A DNA stretch of 42,575 nt from an uncultured Candidatus Saccharibacteria bacterium (GTDB lineage: Bacteria; Patescibacteriota; Saccharimonadia; Saccharimonadales; JACDBH01): the NCBI GenBank assembly GCA_964458165.1, contig CAYWFI010000001.1, positions 1 to 42,575 on the forward strand, written 5' to 3'. Positions within the stretch are counted from its first letter, which is position 1. The number at the start of each line of letters is the position of its first letter. The notes beneath the pieces were generated by a model. It ran no database searches. It was not told the origin of the DNA and saw only the letters and a list, made by a program, of their open reading frames with translations. Of the stretch, positions 4,424 to 33,882 are shown piece by piece. Both the position numbers and the translations under genes were made by a program.

Positions 4424-6191
4424 CGTGAAATTTTTATCAAAAACACTCCTGCGCCTAGCAGCTATAGCTGGCCTGCTAATTACATTACCCGTCCCAGCGT
4501 TGGCACAGGGTGTGAATGATTTTGTATTCACTAATTTTGAAGCCGATTATTATCTAAACAATAGTGATCCGCAGGGCGAAATGCGCGTGGTCGAGAATAT
4601 GACGGTCATTTTCAGCGGGCAAAACCGCGGTATCGAGCGCGCGATTCCACAAAAGTACGACGGACGTGACCTAAAACTGCAGGTACAGAGTGTCAGCTCC
4701 GGATCTGGCGCGCCCACGCAGTACACTACTCGCAATGAAAATGACAATCTGGTGCTGCGTATAGGTGACCCAGATATCTATATAACTGGAGAACAGCAAT
4801 ACACCATAGAGTACACTGTGCAAAATGTCATCAAATTTTATGAAAACCACGATGAGTTGTATTGGGATATTAACGGTGATGGCTGGCAGCAACCGTTCGA
4901 ACACGTATCGGTACGGCTGAGCTTAGGCGAGGGTTTGGGTGTGAACCAGGATCCGCTGTGTTTTACGGGTAGCTTCGGCAGCACGGCGCGGGACTGTGTG
5001 ATTACCGAAGATGCCGGTGTTATCGCGGCCGAAACAACCAGCCCGCTCGGCGCGCGCGAGACATTGACCATTGTTGCCGGCTTTGACAAAGGTTATTTCG
5101 CGCCCATGACCGGCCAAGAACGTTTTATGGAAATTCTGCCCGGCATCATCAAATTCCTGTTGCCGCCACTGCTTATTGGCGGCTATGCCATTCGTCACTG
5201 GCGTCGGCATGGCCGCGACCCAAAAGGCCGCGGCACCATCATCCCGCAGTACGATCCGCCGGCCGGTATGCGTCCGGCCGAGGTCGGCGCGTTAGCGGAT
5301 TTCAGGGTAGACCAGCACGATATTACGGCCGTTATCATTGATCTTGCGGTGCGGCGGTATATCAAGATTATTGAGGAAAAGAAAGTCAAGAAACTGCGCA
5401 AAGACACACTGGAATATTCGCTTGAACTGACAAATGCCGATTTTAGCGACCTGCGCGATTACGAGCAGGAAATTATCAAAGGCATATTCGGTAACACGCC
5501 AAATGCTGGCGAGGTTGTCGAACTTAAAAAACTCAAGAACAAATTCTATACATCATCCGCCAAGGCCAGTGAGCAGATAACCAGTAGAGTCGTGGAAGAG
5601 GGCTACTTTGCAGGGAATCCCGTATCGGCGGGCGGGCGGCTATGGGTAGTGTTTGGCCTGTCTATCGTTGGGGCGGTTGTGTTAGGTGTGATTTTTGGTG
5701 GCGCGATGGTAGCCGGCTTTATCCTTGCGATACTCATCGTATTAATCTGTGCGCTGGCTATGCAGGCTCGCACGGACAAGGGCGTCGAGGCCAAAGAACA
5801 CGCACTGGGTTTGAAATTATATATGGAAACAGCCGAGGCTGACCGCATCAAGATGATGCAGAGCCCGGATGCGCCCTATAACAAAAGCGCCGAGCCCAAG
5901 AAAACGGTAGAGTTGTTTGAAAAACTCTTGCCCTATGCCGTTATTTTTAAGGTGGAAAAGCAGTGGGCGGCAGAATTCAAAGATATCTACACCCAGCCGC
6001 CAGAATGGTATGGCGGCAATAACCTGGCTGCCTTCAATACGGCTTATTTAGCTGGTGCGCTGACAGGCAGCATGAACAGCGCTATGACGACGGCGTTTAG
6101 CAGTCCAAGCAGCTCCGGAGGCTCTGGGTTTTCCGGGGGCGGTGGCTTCTCTGGCGGTGGTGGGGGCGGAGGCGGCGGCGGGGGCTGGTAG
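4410..6191 (+). CDS. DUF2207-type membrane protein with glycine-rich C-terminal tail
   Basis: Signal peptide (..LPVPALAQG), a large extracytoplasmic domain, TM segments, and a tail SSSGGSGFSGGGGFSGGGGGGGGGGGW typical of DUF2207 proteins. GTG start at 4410 (or GTG at 4425) overlaps the previous ORF. Confidence 0.7.
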   Translation: MAINSVKFLSKTLLRLAAIAGLLITLPVPALAQGVNDFVFTNFEADYYLNNSDPQGEMRVVENMTVIFSGQNRGIERAIPQKYDGRDLKLQVQSVSSGSGAPTQYTTRNENDNLVLRIGDPDIYITGEQQYTIEYTVQNVIKFYENHDELYWDINGDGWQQPFEHVSVRLSLGEGLGVNQDPLCFTGSFGSTARDCVITEDAGVIAAETTSPLGARETLTIVAGFDKGYFAPMTGQERFMEILPGIIKFLLPPLLIGGYAIRHWRRHGRDPKGRGTIIPQYDPPAGMRPAEVGALADFRVDQHDITAVIIDLAVRRYIKIIEEKKVKKLRKDTLEYSLELTNADFSDLRDYEQEIIKGIFGNTPNAGEVVELKKLKNKFYTSSAKASEQITSRVVEEGYFAGNPVSAGGRLWVVFGLSIVGAVVLGVIFGGAMVAGFILAILIVLICALAMQARTDKGVEAKEHALGLKLYMETAEADRIKMMQSPDAPYNKSAEPKKTVELFEKLLPYAVIFKVEKQWAAEFKDIYTQPPEWYGGNNLAAFNTAYLAGALTGSMNSAMTTAFSSPSSSGGSGFSGGGGFSGGGGGGGGGGGW

Positions 6192-6194
6192 GTC

Positions 6195-6223
6195 TTGCAC
6201 GATACCACTAAGTAACGTATAAT
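6195..6223 (+). promoter_or_regulatory. Sigma70-type promoter TTGCAC-17 nt-TATAAT
   Basis: -35 TTGCAC at 6195-6200, 17-nt spacer, -10 TATAAT at 6218-6223. It lies directly after the DUF2207 stop and faces the gene-free region. Confidence 0.55.
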
Positions 6224-6229
6224 ACTTCA

Positions 6230-6750
6230 CACTTTGAGGTTGAGTGAGTACGCTCTCTCAAGGGGTTATTTAACAAGGTGTAGAAGTACGTTTAGGTAGT
6301 AACCCTTGCAGAATTGTTTCTGTAGCGGCTACTACCTAAATTGATAGGTAAAAGAATTGCGGTCACTCTGTTTTCGGGGGATAAACAGGTGGTACCGCAT
6401 GCTGTCGGATCGAAACAAGAGGGACACGTGCACAACGCGTGGTTTCGGTCCGACAGAGGTCATTTGCGCATTTCGAGATTGTAGCTCCATATCGTCCGAC
6501 CGCGAAGGAGTTCTCTTGAAGTGTGCAAATTGCCGCAGTGAGACGATGCTGTCTAAAGCTCGAATGACGCGTTTTAAGTCATGTGGTGTCCTAACAGACG
6601 CCCCTCACTGCGGCAACTTCGCGTGGTTCCCGGTTGGGGTTCGCCCGCCTGTCCCCCCATCGGGAACCACGCATAAGTTATCGGGGTACCCCTGGCATCA
6701 TGGCTTCGTCTTGTAGAAGACTATATGATGTTGCCGCCAGGGGTACCCCG
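6230..6750 (+). ncRNA. Candidate large structured non-coding RNA of unknown class (3' end uncertain, possibly near 6830)
   Basis: Consecutive helices: 6232-6238/6257-6263; 6291-6301/6330-6340 (11 bp); 6359-6373/6383-6398; 6402-6416/6442-6456 (15 bp, 1 GU); 6463-6470/6522-6529; 6530-6542/6604-6616 (13 bp); 6621-6632/6661-6672 (12 bp); 6682-6696/6736-6749 (14-15 bp) extended by 6697-6701/6725-6729 and 6708-6712/6717-6721. The wobble pairs are GU only when read on the + strand. Confidence 0.5.
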
Positions 6751-6908
6751 TCCAAGTTTGATTGCCCGTGTGATCGGACTTCAGGAGAGACTTCCAAATG
6801 ACAGATTGGTCGAGACATAGGTTGAGTTTTTTGCTCCCGACACTCCCTTTCATTTTTACCAGCCAGACTTCTACGCCTCTTCACCCGAATCCATAAACAG
6901 ACTCAAGT

Positions 6909-6937
6909 TTGTGGCGTCAGGCGAAGAACCATATAAT
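6909..6937 (+). promoter_or_regulatory. Possible promoter TTGTGG-17 nt-TATAAT very close to the ABC transporter start
   Basis: -10 TATAAT at 6932-6937 is only about 6-12 nt from the GTG (6943) or ATG (6949) start, implying a very short or absent leader. Confidence 0.3.
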
Positions 6938-6942
6938 AACCA

Positions 6943-8721
6943 GTGGCTATGAGGCATATTTTCCGAATCTTACGGTTTACTTCGAGTTTGTGGCGGTATT
7001 ATGCCGCGATTTCGGTATTTACGATTCTGTTGGCCGCGACAAGCCTGCTTCAACCGCTTATTACCGGTCGGGTGGTTGATGAACTGCGTCTGGGCACTGA
7101 AGCGAGCGTTCAATTCGTACTAATCATGGCGGGGCTGATTTTTGCGCTGGATTTCGCCACCACTATCTTTAGCAACATCGGCGGTTATATCGGCGACCAG
7201 ATGCAGGCTAGGCTTATAAAAATTTTAAGCGAACGTTACTATCAGCATATCTTGAGTCTGCCGCAGCAGTTTTTTGACACCGAGCTGACCGGCAAAATCA
7301 TCAATCGCCTCAATCGCTCCATTACCCAAATTGCTAACTTCATGCATATGATGAGCAATAATTTCTTGCAGTTTATATTCAGCACGGTGCTATCGCTTAT
7401 TGTTATCGCTTTTTACAGCTGGCAGGTGGCAACTCTACTTTTTGCCTTGTACCCGATATTTATCCTGATGACTGTTCGCACGAGCAATAAATGGCAGAAG
7501 TATCAGACTAAAAAAAACGAACACAGTGATATTGCCAGCGGCCGGTTTGCCGAAGCGGTTGGACAAATCAAAGTAGTCAAAAGCTTTATTCAGGAAAAAC
7601 GTGAGCTAGGCTTTTTGTCCAAGCATTACGCCAAAGCAGTCGGTATCAACCGGCCGCAATCGCGCCTATGGCACGTCAATGATGTCAAACGGCGAATCGT
7701 ACTGAACATCATTTTCTTTGGTGTCTATGCCTTTATCTTCGTGCAGGCCGCGCAGGGGCAGTTAACACCTGGCGAAGCCGTGACGCTTATCCTATACGCG
7801 CTTAATATTCGTATCCCGATATTTACCATCAGCTTCCTTGTGGAGCAGACTCAGCGTGCTGTGGCCGACAGCCGTGACTACTTTGAGATCATGGAAATCG
7901 AACCGACTATAAACGATGGCCCCGACGCCAGCCCTATCAAAGTCACCGGAGGAGCTATACGTTTTACTAATGTATCATTCGCATACGACAAGCAGCCGGT
8001 ACTTCAAGGTATCGATTTTGGCGTTGAATCAGATAGCAAGGTCGCTCTGGTAGGCGAAAGCGGCGAGGGAAAAACGACTATTACTAACTTGCTCATGCGT
8101 CTGTACCAGCCACAAGAAGGTATCATCGAAATAGACGGCCGTAATATTGCGGGCGTGACCCAAGCCAGCTTGCGCGCCCAAATAGCCGTAGTATTTCAAG
8201 ATCCGGCGCTGTTTAGCGGTACGATCAAAGAAAATATCTCCTACGCCAAACCAAAGGCTACACACAAAGAAATCGAGGCGGCCGCTCGGGCCGCTAACGC
8301 GCACGAATTTATTGCCAAACTAGAGAATGGTTACGATACTGAAATCGGTGAACGCGGACTAAAACTTTCGGGCGGGCAAAAGCAACGTGTCGCCATAGCC
8401 CGCGCGCTTTTAAAAGACGCGCCGATTCTTATTCTAGATGAAGCCACTAGTTCGCTAGATAGCAAGTCCGAGGCTATGGTTCAAGAAGCGCTTGAACGGC
8501 TAATGCGAGGTCGCACTACCATAATCATCGCCCATCGTCTGAGCACTATCCAGTCCGTCGATAAAATCATTACTATTAAGGACGGCAGGGTTGACGAGGT
8601 CGGCACACCGCGCCAGCTGGCTAGAACAGACGGCATCTACGCCCAGTTGCTGGCCCTGCAAAGCCGCGCCCCAACCGATCGTATCCGCAAGCAGCTTAAA
8701 GAGTATGAGATTGCAGGATGA
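6943..8721 (+). CDS. ABC transporter, fused permease/ATP-binding protein (MsbA/exporter type)
   Basis: Six-TM N-terminal half, then Walker A GESGEGKTT, signature LSGGQKQR, Walker B ILILDEATS and H-loop IIAHRLS. The start may be the ATG at 6949. Confidence 0.85.
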   Translation: MAMRHIFRILRFTSSLWRYYAAISVFTILLAATSLLQPLITGRVVDELRLGTEASVQFVLIMAGLIFALDFATTIFSNIGGYIGDQMQARLIKILSERYYQHILSLPQQFFDTELTGKIINRLNRSITQIANFMHMMSNNFLQFIFSTVLSLIVIAFYSWQVATLLFALYPIFILMTVRTSNKWQKYQTKKNEHSDIASGRFAEAVGQIKVVKSFIQEKRELGFLSKHYAKAVGINRPQSRLWHVNDVKRRIVLNIIFFGVYAFIFVQAAQGQLTPGEAVTLILYALNIRIPIFTISFLVEQTQRAVADSRDYFEIMEIEPTINDGPDASPIKVTGGAIRFTNVSFAYDKQPVLQGIDFGVESDSKVALVGESGEGKTTITNLLMRLYQPQEGIIEIDGRNIAGVTQASLRAQIAVVFQDPALFSGTIKENISYAKPKATHKEIEAAARAANAHEFIAKLENGYDTEIGERGLKLSGGQKQRVAIARALLKDAPILILDEATSSLDSKSEAMVQEALERLMRGRTTIIIAHRLSTIQSVDKIITIKDGRVDEVGTPRQLARTDGIYAQLLALQSRAPTDRIRKQLKEYEIAG

Positions 8722-10153: not shown

Positions 10154-10271
10154 GATGTTCCCGCGCGGCACAGCTCGCACCTAAATCTCCGGTCCGCGTT
10201 CACCGTATTGCATATACGCCTCGCTTGCGGTCCTCGATTTAAACGCGAGCTGCACTCACGCGGAGAACATT
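10154..10271 (+). repeat. Intergenic imperfect-palindrome repeat, family A, copy 1 (divergent)
   Basis: Terminal complementarity ATGTTCCCGCG / CGCGGAGAACAT and inner stems CAGCTCGC/GCGAGCTG and TAAATC/GATTTA. Shares the core TCACCGTAT..ATACGCCTC.CTTGCGGT.CTCG with copies at 17195 and 23755. Confidence 0.7.
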
Positions 10272-14510: not shown

Positions 14511-14518
14511 CCCAACTC

Positions 14519-14556
14519 TTCTTATTGTACATTATATCATACCTGTCAAGTAAAGT
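14519..14556 (+). repeat. Motif C copy 1: TTCTTATTGTACATTATATCATACCTGTCAAGTAAAGT
   Basis: The same about 37-nt motif recurs at 31782-31801 plus 31872-31898, where it is interrupted. Confidence 0.6.
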
Positions 14557-14564
14557 AAAGCTTC

Positions 14565-17194: not shown

Positions 17195-17316
17195 GGAGCT
17201 ACGTATTTGGCGCATCTTGGGCGAAAACCTGTGCTCCGCGCTCACCGTATGCTGCAAATACGCCTCACTTGCGGTGCTCGGTTTTCACTCCAAGCTGCAC
17301 ACAAATACGTAGCTCC
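17195..17316 (+). repeat. Intergenic imperfect-palindrome repeat, family A, copy 2
   Basis: Perfect 15-bp outer stem GGAGCTACGTATTTG / CAAATACGTAGCTCC and inner stems CTTGG/CCAAG and CGAAAACC/GGTTTTC(A), with the conserved core. Starts at the base after the TAG stop. Confidence 0.75.
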
Positions 17317-17340
17317 TACTCATAACACCCAGGAATTAGG

Positions 17341-19204: not shown

Positions 19205-19278
19205 AAAATAGGAGCTAGAAACTAGAAAATAGTTGCCTCGCTTTGCTACTAGTTCCTAATTCCTATTTCCTAATTTCT
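19204..19278. repeat. Heptad-periodic palindrome, family B, copy 1
   Basis: Left arm GAAAATA GGAGCTA GAAACTA GAAAATA G. Right arm CTACTAG TTCCTAA TTCCTAT TTCCTAA TTTCT. The arms are roughly complementary and begin at the fba stop codon. Confidence 0.6.
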
Positions 19279-19336
19279 GTTTGTGTGGCAGAATAAGCGT
19301 AAGCGAAAATAATAACTTACAAAAGAAGGGTGGGGG

Positions 19337-20726: not shown

Positions 20727-20755
20727 TTGACAATACTTGACACGTGTGCTATAAT
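20727..20755 (+). promoter_or_regulatory. Consensus sigma70 promoter with extended -10: TTGACA-17 nt-(TGc)TATAAT
   Basis: -35 TTGACA at 20727-20732, TG at 20747-20748, -10 TATAAT at 20750-20755. Confidence 0.65.
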
Positions 20756-20861
20756 GTAAAATAAGAAGAATTCCTGAGTATACGGCTTCAATCCTGAATT
20801 CGCGAATTTGACTAGCTCAACGCCATACCTAGCATTTTTTGGTTTGTGGTAATATTAAGAA

Positions 20862-23754: not shown

Positions 23755-23874
23755 CAACCCACATATTTGGCACATGCCGGGCTAAAATCTGCGCTCCGCA
23801 CTCACCGTATGTCAAATACGCCTCATTTACGGTGCTCGCTTTTCATCCCGGACCGCACTCAAATATGTGGGTTG
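23755..23874 (+). repeat. Intergenic imperfect-palindrome repeat, family A, copy 3
   Basis: Perfect 15-bp outer stem CAACCCACATATTTG / CAAATATGTGGGTTG and inner CCGGG/CCCGG, with the same conserved core as copy 2. Confidence 0.75.
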
Positions 23875-23939
23875 TTGAGCCGGTGGTAAAATGTAGGTAC
23901 CAAGTTCAGAATAAGCACCAAGTAGAGGAGGGTCAGACA

Positions 23940-24206
23940 ATGGAAGAAACCGAACCGTATCTGACATCACAACCACACAGAGAACCTGATGGCAAAAGAT
24001 ACAAATTCAGCAAACGCGAAATCGGGTTGATAGTCGTCGTAATTATAGCTATTGTTGGTGCTGGAATTTTCGCCTGGCAGGTTGACAAAGAAAAGCAAGC
24101 AAGCGTCAATAGTTTCGAAGAATGTGTTGCCGCCGGTAACCCGGTGATGGAGTCCTGGCCCGAGCAATGCCGGGCTGGCGACCAGACATTCACCAAGCAG
24201 TACTAA
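23940..24206 (+). CDS. Small membrane-anchored protein with a two-cysteine C-terminal module
   Basis: ATG at 23940 preceded by GAGGAGG. TM LIVVVIIAIVGAGIFAW, then FEECVAAGNPVMESWPEQCRAGDQTF. Confidence 0.55.
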   Translation: MEETEPYLTSQPHREPDGKRYKFSKREIGLIVVVIIAIVGAGIFAWQVDKEKQASVNSFEECVAAGNPVMESWPEQCRAGDQTFTKQY

Positions 24207-24230
24207 CGGCCAATTTGTTACAATATATAG

Positions 24231-26198
24231 ATGGCCAAGTTCGAACTAAAGAGTAAATACACCCCGCAAGGCGACCAGCCGGCGGCCATTGATCGTATTA
24301 CCGGACTTCTTGGGGACGGACAAAAAGAACAGACCCTGCTGGGCGTAACCGGCAGCGGCAAGACGTTCACGATGGCCAATGTCATTCAGAATATCCAAAA
24401 ACCTACCCTGGTGCTGAGCCATAACAAAACCCTGGCCGCGCAGCTGTATAGCGAGTTCAAAAGCTTTTTCCCGAACAACGCGGTGCATTATTTTGTCAGC
24501 TACTTCGACTACTACCAACCAGAGGCTTATATTGCCCGAAGTGACACCTACATAGAAAAGGACAGCCAAATCAACGAAGAAATTGACAGGCTGCGTCATG
24601 CCGCTACCGACGCGTTGCTTACACGCAAGGACGTGATTATCGTGGCCAGTGTCAGCTGCATCTACGGTATTGGCTCGGTAGAGGATTACGCTGGTCTGAG
24701 CATCGAGGTAGCCAAAGGCAGCCGCAAAATCCGCGACAAATTCCTGCGCCAACTGACTGACATTCAGTATCAGCGTAACGATATAGATTTTCACCGCAGC
24801 ACTTTCCGCGTTCGCGGCGACGTGATAGATGTGTATCCTGCCAGCGAGGAGACGGCTTATCGGATTGAATTTTTTGGCGACGAGGTCGACCGCATCACCA
24901 ATGTCGATCCGCTGACGGGCGAGATCCTAAGCGAACTTGATAAGATTCAGATTTTCCCGGGCAGTCACTACGTGACACCATATGACAAACTCAAAATAGC
25001 GCTTGGACACATCAAACAAGAACTAGAGGAACAAACAAACCTGTTTCAAAAGCAAGGCAAACTATTAGAAGCCCAGCGCCTGGGCCAACGCACCAAGTTT
25101 GACCTGGAGATGCTGGAAGAAACCGGCTTTGTAAAAGGTATCGAAAACTACAGCCGCTACCTTACCAACCGCGCGCCGGGCGAACAGCCGGCCACATTGC
25201 TGGATTATTACCCTGACGACTACCTGATGTTTATAGACGAGTCCCACATGACTATCCCGCAGGTGCGCGGTATGTATAATGGCGACCGTGCGCGCAAGGA
25301 AGTGCTGGTCGAGCACGGTTTCCGCCTGCCCAGCGCGCTGGACAACCGGCCGCTCAACTTTGCCGAATTTGAACACCATATCAACCAAGTTGTTTATGTC
25401 AGCGCCACGCCGGCCGCTTACGAACTGGAACGCAGCCCTGAACCGACTCAGCAAGTTATCCGGCCGACCGGGTTAATCGACCCGCCCATCGAAGTGCGGC
25501 CAATCGAGGGGCAAATCGATGACTTGATTGCTGAAATACGAGATACAATCGCAAAGCGCCAACGAGTATTGGTAACAACGCTCACCAAACGCATGGCAGA
25601 AGATCTGACCGACTATCTAAAAGACATCAACATCAAGGTCACGTACTTGCACAGCGATGTAGACACGTTGGAGCGCACTGATATTTTGCGAGACTTACGC
25701 CTAGGTATCTACGACGTGGTGGTTGGTATCAACCTGCTCCGCGAAGGCCTGGACTTGCCCGAGGTATCACTGGTGGCAATCCTGGACGCTGATAAAGAAG
25801 GTTTCTTACGCAGCGAGCAAGCGCTCATCCAAACTGTTGGCCGTGCCGCCCGCCACATAGACGGTCGGGTGCTGATGTACGCCGATGTTATCACCGGCAG
25901 CATGCAGCGTACTATTGACGAGACTAACCGCCGCCGCGAAATCCAAGAGGCTTATAACAAAGAGCACGACATCACCCCGGCCGGCATCGCCAAAGCCGTA
26001 GGCGATAGTATGAGTGTGGAGATCTCAGGCGAAGAAGCCAAAAAAGCCAAGCTAGACCTCAAGAAAATTCCAAAAGACGAGTACAAACACTTGATCAAAG
26101 ATCTAACCGCCCAAATGGACCTGGCCGCCGCCAACCTGCAATTCGAAAAAGCCGCCGAACTACGGGATATTATCGCCGACGTAAAATCCAAACTGTAA
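24231..26198 (+). CDS. uvrB: Excinuclease ABC subunit B
   Basis: GDQPAAI, Walker [14 protein letters not shown] box, helicase motifs, and the C-terminal UVR domain ([11 protein letters not shown]). Confidence 0.95.
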
Positions 26199-31761: not shown

Positions 31762-31781
31762 GCTCTCTCTATGGCAAAGTA

Positions 31782-31898
31782 TTCTTCTTATTATACATTA
31801 TCCCCTCCGGGCATAATGAGACCCGTTCGGAATAAGGTAAGCAAGCTTACTTTATTCACTCTCTATCCTCTCATTATATCACACCTGTCAAGTAAAGT
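31782..31898 (+). repeat. Motif C copy 2, split by a roughly 70-nt insertion flanked by a CATTAT direct duplication
   Basis: 31782-31801 TTCTTCTTATTATACATTAT and 31872-31898 CATTATATCACACCTGTCAAGTAAAGT together match the contiguous motif at 14519-14556. Confidence 0.5.
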
Positions 31899-31942
31899 CA
31901 ATATGCAAAAGACCTTTCTAATCTGTTATACTGGGGTTTCAG

Positions 31943-32236: not shown

Positions 32237-32309
32237 AACTAGAAACTAGGAATCAGAAACTAGGAACTAGTAAGGGCCGGCTATTTCCTATTTCCTATTT
32301 CCTAGTTCC
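32237..32309. repeat. Heptad-periodic palindrome, family B, copy 2
   Basis: Left arm of 7-mers (GAAACTA GAAACTA GGAATCA GAAACTA GGAACTA G), loop TAAGGGCCGG, right arm CTATTTC x3 + CTAGTTC. Fills the whole gatC-gatA spacer. Confidence 0.65.
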
Positions 32310-32327
32310 TTGCGATGGAGTTGGTGC

Positions 32328-33746
32328 GTGAGTTGGCCCAAGATTTCAGATATCGCCGCCTCGGTTCGTTCGGGCGAAACATCGGCCGTGTCGCTGGTGG
32401 AAGACTCCTTGCAGCGTATCCAGGCTGCCGATGAATATAAAGCTATTATTACCACTGTGCGAGACCGAGCGCTGGAGCGCGCCGGGTTTGTTGACGAGCA
32501 AGTGCGCGCCGGCAAGAACCCTGGCCGGTTGGCTGGCGTGCCTTTTATCGCCAAAGACAATTTTTTGACTCTTGGGTCAGAAACGACTGCGGCCAGCAAT
32601 ATTCTAAAAGGCTTCGAGGCGCCGTATCAGTCAACCGTGATTGAGCGGCTGGAGGCTGAAGGCGCGATAGTGGTGGCCAAGGCCAACCTGGATGCTTTTG
32701 CGCACGGTTCATCAACTGAGAATAGTGATTTTTTTACAACACTGAACCCGCACGACAAATCACGTGTGCCGGGCGGCAGCTCGGGCGGGTCGGGCGCGGC
32801 AGTGGTGTTAGGCCTGGCGCCGTTCGCCCTGGGTTCTGATACCGGAGGCTCCATCCGCCTGCCTGCTAGTTTTACCGGCAGCGTGGGACTTAAGCCGACT
32901 TATGGCCTGACATCCCGCAGCGGCGTGGTAGCTATGGCTAGCAGCCTGGACTGTATGGGTCCGCTAACAATGCGCGTAGAAGACGCGGCATTAGTGCTGG
33001 ATATAATGGCTGGTCGGGATGAACTGGATGGCACCACGATCGAGCGTGACGAAACCAGTTATACCAAGTTGGATACAAACCTGAACGGCAAGATTATTGG
33101 CGTAGTCAAAGAATATTTTGATGATGGTCTTGATGAATCTGTCCGCGGCAACATAGAGGTAGCCATCAAAACACTGGAGAACGCCGGTGCGATTATCAAG
33201 CAAGTGAGCTTGCCGAGCTTGCCGCTGGCACTGGCCGTATACTACATTGTCTGCCCGGCAGAGGTAAGCAGCAACTTGAGTCGTTACGACGGACAACGCT
33301 ATGGCTACAGTTATCCGGACGCCAAAAATATTGCCGAAAGCTACGAGCTATCGCGCGAAAAAGGCTTTGGCACCGAAGCCAAGCGCAGGATTATGATTGG
33401 CACCTATGTGTTGAGCAGCGGCTACTACGATGCTTACTACAACAAGGCGCAAACAGTACGGACGAAACTTATCAAAGAGTTTGAAAGAGCCTTTGCTGAA
33501 GTCGATTTTTTGCTTGGGCCAACCGCGCCGTCGACCGCGTTTAAGATTGGGGAGAACACGGATGACCCACTCAAAATGTACCTGACAGATATTATGACTG
33601 TCGCGGCCAACCTGGTCGGCGTGCCGGCTATCAGCGTGCCATGCGGGGATGTGGACGGTCTGCCGGTCGGCCTGCAGTTAATGGCTCCGCAACGCCGCGA
33701 CCGCGAACTGTTGGGCCTAGCCAGGGCTTATGAGGAGCTAAAATGA
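32328..33746 (+). CDS. gatA: Asp/Glu-tRNA(Asn/Gln) amidotransferase subunit A
   Basis: Amidase signature GGSSGGSGAAV plus KDNF...TTAAS. GTG at 32328 has GGAG 7 nt upstream; the TTG at 32310 is an alternative start. Confidence 0.9.
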   Translation: MSWPKISDIAASVRSGETSAVSLVEDSLQRIQAADEYKAIITTVRDRALERAGFVDEQVRAGKNPGRLAGVPFIAKDNFLTLGSETTAASNILKGFEAPYQSTVIERLEAEGAIVVAKANLDAFAHGSSTENSDFFTTLNPHDKSRVPGGSSGGSGAAVVLGLAPFALGSDTGGSIRLPASFTGSVGLKPTYGLTSRSGVVAMASSLDCMGPLTMRVEDAALVLDIMAGRDELDGTTIERDETSYTKLDTNLNGKIIGVVKEYFDDGLDESVRGNIEVAIKTLENAGAIIKQVSLPSLPLALAVYYIVCPAEVSSNLSRYDGQRYGYSYPDAKNIAESYELSREKGFGTEAKRRIMIGTYVLSSGYYDAYYNKAQTVRTKLIKEFERAFAEVDFLLGPTAPSTAFKIGENTDDPLKMYLTDIMTVAANLVGVPAISVPCGDVDGLPVGLQLMAPQRRDRELLGLARAYEELK

Positions 33747-33749
33747 CGG

Positions 33750-33862
33750 AATTTTCAATTCTTAATTTTCAATTTTCAATCAATGCTTCAATAAGCCAAT
33801 TTTCAAATAGCGCGGCTACGCCGCTGCCTCAATTGAAAATTGAAAATTGTAAATTGATAATT
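33750..33862. repeat. Heptad-periodic palindrome, family B-like, copy 3 (AATTTTC units)
   Basis: Left arm 33750-33784 (AATTTTC AATTCTT AATTTTC AATTTTC AATCAAT) is complementary to the right arm 33828-33862 (..CAATTG AAAATTG AAAATTG TAAATTG ATAATT). Central GC hairpin GCGGC-TAC-GCCGC at 33812-33824. Confidence 0.65.
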
Positions 33863-33882
33863 GCTTCTGAAAGGAGCTGGTC

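Follow-up and report, generated by a model that had tools for sequence, protein, structure and literature searches.

The interval from ~6229 to 6927 on the + strand of the window (the whole stretch of DNA that was analysed, 42,575 nt) probably encodes an RNA of ~700 nt that is stable, highly structured and not translated, and that belongs to an uncatalogued family of a Saccharibacteria (TM7, Patescibacteria) subclade. Both the transcript ends and the stability of the RNA are model-based predictions that we infer from the sequence. A first-pass annotation had described a promoter-driven, + strand, large structured RNA of unassigned class, and each part of that description was supported.

The element lies in the gap between a DUF2207 gene (end 6191) and an ABC exporter gene (start ATG 6949 or GTG 6943), bounds that agree with the ~750-bp gap in a packed genome noted at first pass. 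A sigma-70-type promoter, TTGCAC-17-TATAAT, was identified at 6195..6223 on the + strand by direct reading and exact pattern match, at the position previously given for it. It comprises a -35 element (TTGCAC, 6195-6200), a 17-nt spacer and a -10 element (TATAAT, 6218-6223), and the transcription start is predicted at ~6229-6231. The match inside the window alone was not above chance (1 found vs 1.09 expected), and the promoter was not listed by a generic promoter scan of the window because its -35 element agrees with TTGACA at only 3/6 positions. Its weight derives from its presence in all 13 homologous copies of the element; in 13/13, TTGnnn-17-TAnnnT ends 12-16 nt upstream of a GTTGAG motif.

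The RNA is predicted to begin with a 5'-terminal hairpin, P1 (6232..6263, + strand), CUUUGAGG-UU-GAGUG-AGUA-CGCUC-UCUCAAGG, which was present in the minimum-free-energy (MFE) fold of every copy as a helix with a conserved UU bulge (GG-UU-GAG / CUC-CC module). The GAG/CUC pairs were invariant in alignment A4, the outer pairs covaried, and 5/11 pairs were compensatory. A covariance model of P1 (R1) matched 12 copies at E<1e-6 in Saccharibacteria loci and showed no match against 757 kb of unrelated genomes. P1 is followed by a single-stranded, boxA-like linker, GUUAUUUAACA (6265..6275, + strand), which carries one mismatch to GYTCTTTAANA and whose 3' end enters the helix P2. The UUAAC of the linker was conserved in alignment A4, and it might form a pseudoknot with the GUUGA of the P1-type modules. 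Integron core sites (GTTRRRY/RYYYAAC, matching GTTGAGT and AUUUAAC) were considered and rejected, as their order was wrong and several copies did not fit.

P2 is a long-range helix between the leader and a trailer that lies 0.55-0.9 kb further 3'. Its 5' strand, GGUGUAGAAGU (6277..6287, + strand), pairs in the MFE fold with the 3' strand, ACUUCUACGCC (6867..6877, + strand), and the pairing was also identified by covariation. Compensatory changes were present in 9/12 pairs of P2, with 92.3% paired vs 30-53% in slid controls; the covariation score was 0.70 vs 0.24 in shuffled alignments, and was reached by 0/500 shuffles. The conserved first hairpin inside P2, H1 (GUUUAGGUAGUAACC...GGCUACUACCUAAAU; 6290..6341, + strand), was likewise defined by covariation, with 17/21 compensatory pairs, 89.8% paired vs 28-50% in slid controls, and 0/500 shuffles reaching its score. 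The terminal hairpin T (6878..6927, + strand), UCUUC-A-CC-C-GA-AU-CCAUAAAC...GUUUGUGG-CG-UC-A-GG-C-GAAGA, is comprised of stacked short helices with conserved A·C / C·A mismatches between them, and is probably the 3' end or a processing element. In T, 11/16 pairs were compensatory, 93% were paired vs 34-54% in slid controls, and 0/500 shuffles reached the score. Two U·G pairs of T are conserved (in 8/10 and 6/10 sequences) and place the RNA on the + strand. The covariance model of T (R2) matched 11 copies on the + strand (L004/L005 being taken once), with E values of 2.6e-15 to 4e-7, and the score of the - strand was always lower. The covariation in relatives, which the first-pass annotation had proposed as a check, was thus strong for P2, H1 and T by the slid-control tests, in alignments that were small (9-13 sequences). 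No covariation was seen between the CCGCC loops and GGCG in T as pairing partners.

The interior of the RNA (6347..6794, + strand) was resolved by MFE decomposition into an array of hairpins. The array includes hairpins at 6358-6399, 6403-6455 and 6462-6530, a four-way junction at 6531-6615, a hairpin with a CCCGCC loop at 6616-6678, a GC-rich hairpin (H-G) followed by GUCCAA at 6682-6750, and a small UGAUUG/UGAUCG hairpin at 6751-6786, all in the + strand MFE fold. The number and sequence of the body hairpins differ between genomes, at two hot spots. The body was poorly alignable beyond close relatives, and covariation support was absent for most of its hairpins; full-length MAFFT and pairwise global alignments matched the ends only, their apparent 70% identity being a gap-scoring artefact. 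Elements recognisable by eye in relatives were H-G followed by R-N-CCA-W, the UGAUCG hairpin and YCCGCC loops, and a CAGUGAG/CUCACUG junction was recognisable in L141. The body is followed by a 3' hairpin (6804..6851, + strand) of two nested P1-type modules, GG-UC-GAG-ACAUA-GG-UU-GAGU...GCUC-CC-GACA-CUC-CC, identified by sequence conservation and single-sequence folds. This sequence block was conserved in the window copy, L001, L131, L003 and L004a, and a partial match to R1 lies inside it, at 6818-6840. Because MAFFT misaligns both elements, RNAalifold returned no consensus structure for the 3' hairpin from the MAFFT alignment, and little or nothing for H-G.

The predicted free energy of 6225-6850 was -286 kcal/mol on the + strand, compared with -200.6 +/- 6.9 kcal/mol for shuffled sequences (z = -12.4), and -242 kcal/mol on the - strand (z = -8.4). 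G·U pairs accounted for 26/251 pairs in the full-length + strand fold vs 11/230 on the - strand. The + strand was the stabler of the two in 11/11 copies, by a margin of 11-51 kcal/mol, and this comparison, together with the conserved U·G pairs, agrees with the earlier argument that the non-Watson-Crick pairs favour a + strand RNA. All of the stems listed at first pass occurred in the MFE fold: 6290-6341 (H1, an inverted repeat), 6403-6455, 6531-6542/6604-6615, 6621-6634/6659-6672 and 6682-6696/6736-6750, the last holding a nested GUCUU-GUAG-AAGAC stem-loop. Independent MFE folds showed the same architecture in all copies. The extent previously given, 6195-6830, was corrected at its 3' end. The element extends past 6830 through the 3' hairpin (6804-6851), the 3' strand of P2 (6867-6877) and the terminal hairpin (6878-6927) to ~6927, some 100 nt further 3', and is closed by the leader-trailer helix.

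Thirteen copies were found in 11 Saccharibacteria genomes by synteny, DNA pattern and covariance model. Syntenic regions, also proposed for comparison at first pass, showed the element to be kept in relatives with the same promoter. The plan common to all copies is promoter, P1, boxA-like strand, P2, H1, variable hairpins, P1-repeat 3' hairpin and T. The hairpin-array type is represented by 11 copies in ten genomes. Members of the family are 570-950 nt long (~700 nt in the window copy) and number one to three per genome. At the syntenic site in other Saccharibacteria the element was absent and the gene order unchanged; it is thus not a universal housekeeping RNA. A 14-base pattern, GCTCCNGACACTCCYT, matched at least 120 loci in genome contigs, and among the matches listed (80, L008-L087) all were in unrelated taxa and look like chance. 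A two-block pattern matched 6 loci in metagenome contigs, of which only L131 and L132 were real, and a pattern scan of viral contigs gave chance matches only. A literature search for a prior description found nothing relevant. Patescibacteria genomes are ~1 Mb and have little room for dispensable sequence, and an RNA gene of 0.6-0.95 kb in one to three copies therefore implies a real function.

The arrangement of the locus resembles a bacterial pre-rRNA unit in its promoter, proximal hairpin, boxA-like U-rich strand (GUUAUUUAACA vs GYUCUUUAANA) and covarying leader-trailer helix round a long untranslated structured RNA. The enclosed RNA, however, is not rRNA and matches no Rfam family; as there was no SSU or LSU rRNA match in the window, the locus is not a member of an rRNA operon and the analogy is a functional one only. 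P2 is 8-14 bp in length, whereas rRNA leader-trailer helices are 25-40 bp (PMC10250234). The boxA-like element adjoins P2, whereas rRNA boxA is 18-19 nt upstream of boxC; P1 is sequence-conserved and boxB is not; and small protein genes, too, occur inside this wrapper. The boxA consensus, GYTCTTTAANA, is that of gamma-proteobacteria (PMC5725501) and may not apply to Saccharibacteria; the window linker (GTTATTTAACA) departs from it by one mismatch, at C4. In the E. coli suhB boxA, a double mutant of position 4 (C) and T6 abolished function (PMC5725501). A boxA match at the same offset from P1 was present with <=1 mismatch in 6/13 copies and with 2-4 mismatches in 7/13, and position 4 was A or U in several. 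The number of boxA matches inside one window was not above chance (5 found vs 5.7 expected).

In a model of pre-rRNA, whose leader-trailer helices contain boxC on their 5' side, boxA keeps the leader anchored until the trailer has been transcribed (PMC10250234). It is possible, and by this analogy we tentatively suggest, that the RNA described here is made in a similar manner, with a leader-trailer clamp and possibly Nus/boxA. NusB/NusE-type factors would bind the linker on the nascent RNA, where they would shield the long untranslated transcript from Rho and tether the leader close to RNA polymerase up to the emergence of the trailer. A leader held in this way would allow P2 to form across 0.55-0.9 kb, and P2 and T would define and protect the RNA ends, possibly after RNase III cutting. 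Other untranslated transcripts are protected by boxA, such as CRISPR arrays, in which a boxA-like element suppresses Rho termination. These share with the window RNA a long untranslated transcript starting with a boxA-like element; the window RNA differs in having no repeats or spacers, and its boxA match is imperfect.

The mature RNA might act in trans as a scaffold or decoy, a reading that we put forward with weak confidence. A protein or G-rich RNAs would bind it through its three GG-UU-GAG/CUC-CC modules, T and C-rich apical loops (YCCGCC, CCCUCUCC), and the variable hairpins could serve as struts or expansion segments. An alternative that contests this function, and not the identity of the RNA, is that of a base-pairing regulator, with the C-rich apical loops (YCCGCC, CCCUCUCC) pairing in trans with G-rich/Shine-Dalgarno regions of mRNAs, as in a RNAIII-like molecule. 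RNAIII of S. aureus, which carries hld, consists of many hairpins, is closed by long-range helices and has C-rich loops at the hairpin tips. The window RNA is similar to it as a multi-hairpin RNA of at least ~0.5 kb with a long-range closing helix and C-rich loops, and relatives in the family can contain an ORF, since some paralogous wrappers have one, much as RNAIII has hld. C/U-rich loops predominate, with GNRA in only 4/54 tetraloops; CCGCC is 20-fold enriched in loops and found in 5/11 copies, and long CCCUCUCC-type loops are present in L003, L131, L129 and L004b. We nevertheless consider RNAIII-like pairing unlikely. An SD-like motif was present in only 14/32 window genes, the loop motif is missing from some copies, and the best-conserved parts (the P1 module and T) are helices and not loops. 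There is also no homology with RNAIII, the phylum is another one, and the window copy is without an ORF.

The element could also represent a giant cis-acting 5' leader, that is, the 5' UTR of the following gene (here the ABC exporter), with control via read-through, processing or stability. The terminator scan of the window found no hairpin with a U-run 3' of T, and in every copy (13/13) the gene 3' of T is on the same strand and starts 19-88 nt beyond it, both of which are consistent with a leader. This explanation is nonetheless quite unlikely, since the downstream gene differs between copies, with five partners (ABC exporter, NUDIX, FKBP, yajQ or a second RNA copy), and since L004 contains a tandem pair of copies with separate promoters. 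Most of the downstream genes, moreover, have a -10 box of their own (TATAAT, TATACT or TACACT) between T and the start codon. In the window, direct reading showed a -10-like TATAAT at 6932-6937, outside the RNA and followed by the exporter ATG at 6949 (6932..6951, + strand). Relatives keep the gene order without the element, and no SD-sequestering or terminator-forming expression platform is visible. The T hairpin as the -35 element of a downstream promoter was ruled out, as the spacing is not conserved. A riboswitch or cis-regulatory leader class was rejected on the five downstream partners and the lack of a terminator-like site after T.

Two paralogous copies of the wrapper, one in L140 and one in L004 (L004c), lie between yajQ and pheS and contain ORFs of 174 and 156 aa. 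Each ORF is preceded by an SD, encodes an N-terminal hydrophobic segment and shows a codon signal specific to its frame, and a protein search with the L140 ORF showed it to be an orphan. The wrapper is therefore not specific to non-coding RNA. A more speculative and rather doubtful proposal is that P1, the boxA-like linker, P2 and T form a modular end-clamp that these epibiotic bacteria use on non-ribosomal cargo, in which Nus-type factors loaded on the leader would carry the leader along until the trailer is made, and the cargo would be either hairpin-array RNA (as in the window) or an mRNA for a small, Cys-rich, secreted protein (L140, L004c). If true, non-ribosomal cargo, both a stable RNA and mRNAs, would for the first time be seen to mature by an rRNA-style leader-trailer pathway, and Patescibacteria would have a new class of abundant RNA, structural or regulatory, in the hairpin-array type. 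The coding signal of the enclosed ORFs would also suit a wrapper that is an mRNA device, with the window ORF degenerated and the hairpins functionless; this we regard as very unlikely. A decaying ORF does not gain structure at z = -12, and hairpin arrays are present in 11 copies from ten genomes. H1, the GC-rich hairpin with RNCCAW, the UGAUCG hairpin and the YCCGCC loops recur in the body, the + strand G·U excess spans it, and no residual similarity was found between the window body and the ORF-type cargo. The window ORF at 6357-6716 had been noted at first pass to run through the stems, and a protein-coding reading of it was not supported: it had no Pfam match, no ORF was shared among the 11 copies, and its codon log-odds of -0.29 was not frame-specific (-0.37 and -0.31 in the other frames; +0.1 to +0.6 in real genes).

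We consider it highly improbable that the gene encodes a known housekeeping RNA (RNase P RNA, tmRNA, 6S, SRP) or a known large RNA (OLE, ROOL, GOLLD, raiA, HEARO) that has diverged past detection, even though the RNAs of Patescibacteria are divergent. At the gathering threshold, Rfam 15 gave 0 matches in the whole window and none in L001, L003, L004 and L006, which left the class unassigned, as it had been before. Low-threshold searches (E<=10 for 6100-7000; E<=5 for L128, L129, L141 and L142) returned only miRNA/snoRNA/JUMPstart-type noise, well below threshold, and none of the RNAs named above. ARAGORN identified neither a tRNA nor a tmRNA in the window, and with Rfam 15 it matched the earlier failure to find tmRNA, RNase P and SRP features. 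By eye, RNase P P4 strands, a tmRNA acceptor end and SRP domain IV were absent. A genome can contain as many as three copies, related genomes lack the family at the syntenic site, and one form has an ORF, a pattern at odds with an essential single-copy RNA. Other candidates were also rejected: a tRNA T-loop in CCCGAAUCC, which is without the UU; a preQ1-I-like tail, which had no Rfam match; and a retron ncRNA (msr-msd), the neighbours (pheT, DUF2207, ABC exporter, NUDIX, FKBP, TrxR) including no RT. The large ornate ncRNAs OLE, ROOL and GOLLD (PMC12286853) are similar in size to the present RNA (0.6-0.9 kb) and, like it, are multi-branched, paired at their ends, lineage-restricted and without an ORF, and have a conserved core with variable parts. 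The present RNA, in contrast, matches their models in neither sequence nor structure, and its body is comprised of long, near-perfect, fast-changing hairpins with few GNRA loops, vs their dense conserved junctions.

DNA-level palindromes (REP/MITE-like insertions, or recombination or replication sites) are a scarcely tenable explanation, despite the long near-perfect inverted repeats and a separate, unrelated 120-nt palindromic repeat family in this genome, as no body hairpin is copied elsewhere in the 42.5-kb window, the strand asymmetry holds in 11/11 copies, the conserved U·G pairs would become C·A on the - strand, the conserved promoter stands at a fixed distance, and a covarying helix spans 0.55-0.9 kb.

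Bacterial ncRNAs of >500 nt with conserved structure are rare, and OLE, GOLLD and ROOL each opened new biology. To our knowledge, no such large structured ncRNA class has been described from Patescibacteria/CPR. A match of the CCGCC loops to the 3' end of the DUF2207 mRNA could easily be due to chance, as that GGCGG-rich end is of low complexity. With this family, a connection between rRNA-style co-transcriptional folding (boxA/Nus, leader-trailer helix) and non-ribosomal RNA becomes testable, and it is an unusual case of one conserved 5'/3' wrapper that surrounds a non-coding body in some copies and protein-coding cargo in others. An Infernal/R-scape survey can begin from the 13 seed sequences and two small covariance models.

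The window covers a housekeeping region of a chromosome from Saccharibacteria (TM7, Patescibacteria), and the named homologues of the flanking proteins are labelled Saccharibacteria or Patescibacteria. Its genes are, in order, pheS', pheT, one for a 344-aa protein and DUF2207; after a gap at 6192-6948 come ABC exporter, NUDIX, FKBP, glutaredoxin and thioredoxin reductase, and then further genes. The promoter proposed in the first-pass annotation, TTGCAC-17-TATAAT, was found at 6195-6223, and the stems listed there were all present in the minimum-free-energy fold. The strong folding also held: the + strand of 6225-6850 folded at -286 kcal/mol versus -200.6 +/- 6.9 kcal/mol for dinucleotide shuffles (z = -12.4), and the - strand at -242 kcal/mol (z = -8.4). 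The proposed end at 6830 had to be revised, as the RNA spans about 6229-6927.

Related loci were gathered by walking outward from DUF2207 and ABC exporter homologues, plus one DNA-pattern match. Homologous elements were found as follows: after DUF2207 (loci L003 and L129), between DUF2207 and FKBP (L128), between ABC and NUDIX (L001), upstream of NUDIX (L131), upstream of ABC (L141, L145 and L142, the last identical to L143 and L144), and as two tandem copies at L004. The same gene order without the gap and the element was present in the other Saccharibacteria L006/L007, L139 and the P0008 contig. A BLASTN comparison of the window's gap with the first loci gave just two aligned blocks, one 5' and one 3', with a differing middle. 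Several public contigs have a boundary in or adjoining the RNA locus (L141 start; L129, L005 and L140 ends); short-read assembly may break off at this hairpin-dense region or at its paralogues.

Independent single-sequence folds gave the same plan in all copies. The promoter is followed by P1, a 5'-terminal hairpin whose GG-UU-GAG...CUC-CC core is invariant, then by a single-stranded linker with the 3' end UUAAC(A), and by the 5' strand of the helix P2, whose partner trailer lies 0.55-0.9 kb downstream. Inside P2 are the conserved hairpin H1, an array of 5-15 long hairpins that varies between genomes, and a 3' hairpin repeating the P1 module, often twice and nested. Landmarks of the array are a GC-rich hairpin then R-N-CCA-W, a small UGAUCG hairpin, and YCCGCC loops. 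The P2 3' strand and the terminal hairpin T, in which conserved mismatches, A·C and C·A, set short helices apart, complete the element. The body hairpins had no second copy anywhere in the window.

A TTGnnn-17-TAnnnT promoter was present in 13/13 copies and ended 12-16 nt before GTTGAG; with this spacing, P1 begins at the predicted 5' end or directly beside it. No terminator (hairpin plus U-run) was seen after T, and the next gene starts 19-88 nt past T, usually behind its own -10-like box. The element could in principle be a cis leader of the next gene, but this is disfavoured by five different downstream partners, by those separate -10 boxes, and by the tandem copies at L004 (7358-8012 and 8050-8800), which are divergent and each have their own promoter. 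A -10 box just 6-11 nt before a start codon lacking a Shine-Dalgarno motif was noted at window 24200-24233 and 6932-6951, L142 4985-5003 and L131 1608-1628 (reverse complement). Shine-Dalgarno-like motifs precede only 14 of 32 window genes, and these sequences suggest that the organism commonly makes mRNAs with no leader or a very short one.

The RNA had been left unassigned to a class, and Rfam 15 gave no gathering-threshold match in the window or four related loci; permissive E-values returned miRNA- or snoRNA-type noise only. ARAGORN identified no tRNA or tmRNA, and no earlier description was found in the literature searched. A diverged known RNA is disfavoured by the copy number, the patchy distribution and the lack of even weak model matches to such RNAs. 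The element is genuine and represents a new RNA family, with no match in Rfam 15 or in the literature searched; it is not a member of the pre-rRNA unit or any other known family. As for coding potential, the ORF at 6357-6716 is not a conserved protein gene. It has no Pfam family, no counterpart in any relative compared, and no frame-specific codon signal (log-odds of -0.29 in frame versus -0.37 and -0.31 in the other frames; real window genes, +0.1 to +0.6). A decayed ORF is likewise disfavoured by the extreme structure and the recurring internal landmarks.

Covariation was assessed in 9-13 mutually related sequences, with segments hand-picked from folds, and compensatory changes were found in P2, H1 and T (0/500 shuffles each). 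In P2, analysed as 13 spliced leader/trailer segments and in an 11-sequence version, 9 of 12 pairs were compensatory, with 92.3% of cells paired versus 30-53% in slid controls and a covariation score of 0.70 versus 0.24 +/- 0.03 shuffled. The corresponding values were 17 of 21 pairs and 89.8% (28-50%) for H1, and 11 of 16 pairs and 93.0% (34-54%) for T. P1, with compensatory changes in 5 of 11 pairs, is conserved mainly at the sequence level. R1, a covariance model of P1 and the linker, matched all copies except the divergent second L004 copy (L004b) at E<=1.3e-7, partially matched the 3' hairpin module of the window copy, and had zero matches in 757 kb of unrelated bacterial DNA. The slid-partner controls and this independent recovery of copies argue that the covariation signal is real.

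The + strand fold was the more stable in 11/11 copies (by 11-51 kcal/mol), and R2, the covariance model of T, always scored higher on that strand. Two U·G pairs in T, which would be C·A on the opposite strand, were kept in 8/10 and 6/10 sequences. Together with the promoter and the long-range covariation, this strand asymmetry speaks against DNA palindromes and for a + strand RNA, as first proposed.

R1 also found two non-seed sites, each lying between yajQ and pheS on the - strand, at L140 1354-1309 (38.5 bits) and L004 1425-1386 (17.7 bits). The whole paralogues (L140 520-1360; L004 680-1432; both -) share the family order of promoter, P1, linker, P2 5' strand and H1-like hairpin. There follow a Shine-Dalgarno motif, an ORF of 174 (L140) or 156 aa (L004), a long GC-rich hairpin and the corresponding P2 3' strand, and then a T-like hairpin recognised by eye but not detected by R2. 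Codon signals were +0.18 and +0.01 in frame versus -0.28 to -0.56 out of frame; the wrapper, that is, the P1-to-T set, can therefore enclose a protein gene, whereas in the window copy and ten others it encloses a non-coding hairpin array. The two proteins are mutually unrelated, with several Cys and an N-terminal hydrophobic segment, and a protein search left the L140 protein an orphan. The L004 genome thus carries three wrappers within 8 kb (the tandem pair and the ORF-type copy), flanking pheS-pheT-DUF2207 in opposite orientations.

By analogy, the RNA appears to be built partly like a pre-rRNA unit. A bacterial rRNA operon has the same order of promoter, hairpin, U-rich single strand, leader-trailer helix 5' strand, long structured untranslated RNA and trailer. 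In rRNA operons, NusB/NusE and their partners load at boxA, and it has been proposed that the antitermination complex retains the leader close to the RNA exit channel for as long as the trailer has not emerged (PMC10250234). In the window, the linker reads GTTATTTAACA. A match to the gamma-proteobacterial boxA consensus GYTCTTTAANA (PMC5725501) lies at the same offset with <=1 mismatch in 6/13 copies and 2-4 in the rest; within one window a match of this kind does not exceed chance, and the likeness is a lead rather than a result. Being long and untranslated, such a transcript would need shielding from Rho, and a Nus-type chaperone would help a helix to form across as much as 0.9 kb of competing hairpins. 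Production in the rRNA-operon style, with boxA/Nus factors on the leader, is a tentative proposal to which we give clearly less than even weight.

Conservation is highest in helices whose bulges or mismatches are fixed, namely three GG-UU-GAG modules and T, which look like candidate protein-binding sites. GNRA was found in only 4/54 tetraloops; C/U-rich loops dominate, and CCGCC is enriched 20-fold in loops and present in 5/11 copies. Such apical loops are unusual for a compact ribozyme-like RNA. We infer that a trans-acting scaffold or decoy, or a base-pairing regulator like RNAIII, fits better than a catalytic core. The codons for the Gly-rich tail at the DUF2207 C-terminus (6138-6190) are GGCGG-rich and complementary to the CCGCC motif in the loops of the adjacent RNA; this sequence is of low complexity, and the match may be chance.

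Other repeats were noted in the window. An unrelated intergenic element, a long imperfect hairpin of ~120 nt, recurs at 17195-17320, 23755-23875 and 10155-10270, and at L128 2700-2810. The first two copies are 80-82% identical, the first folds at -62.6 kcal/mol (z = -9.0), and the element may be REP/MITE-like, terminator-like or a small RNA. Intergenic AT-rich simple repeats of the types CTAGTTCCTAATTCCTATTTCCTA and AATTTTCAATT, the latter forming a 36-nt inverted repeat, lie at 19247-19310, 32241-32310 and 33745-33867. A conserved block of ~46 nt occurs in three copies, at 14514-14559 (-), 20727-20772 (+), and 31781-31801 with 31872-31901 (-). It contains TTGACA-17-TATAAT then GTA(C/A)AATAAGAAGA, and is therefore read as a shared promoter and leader of several genes.
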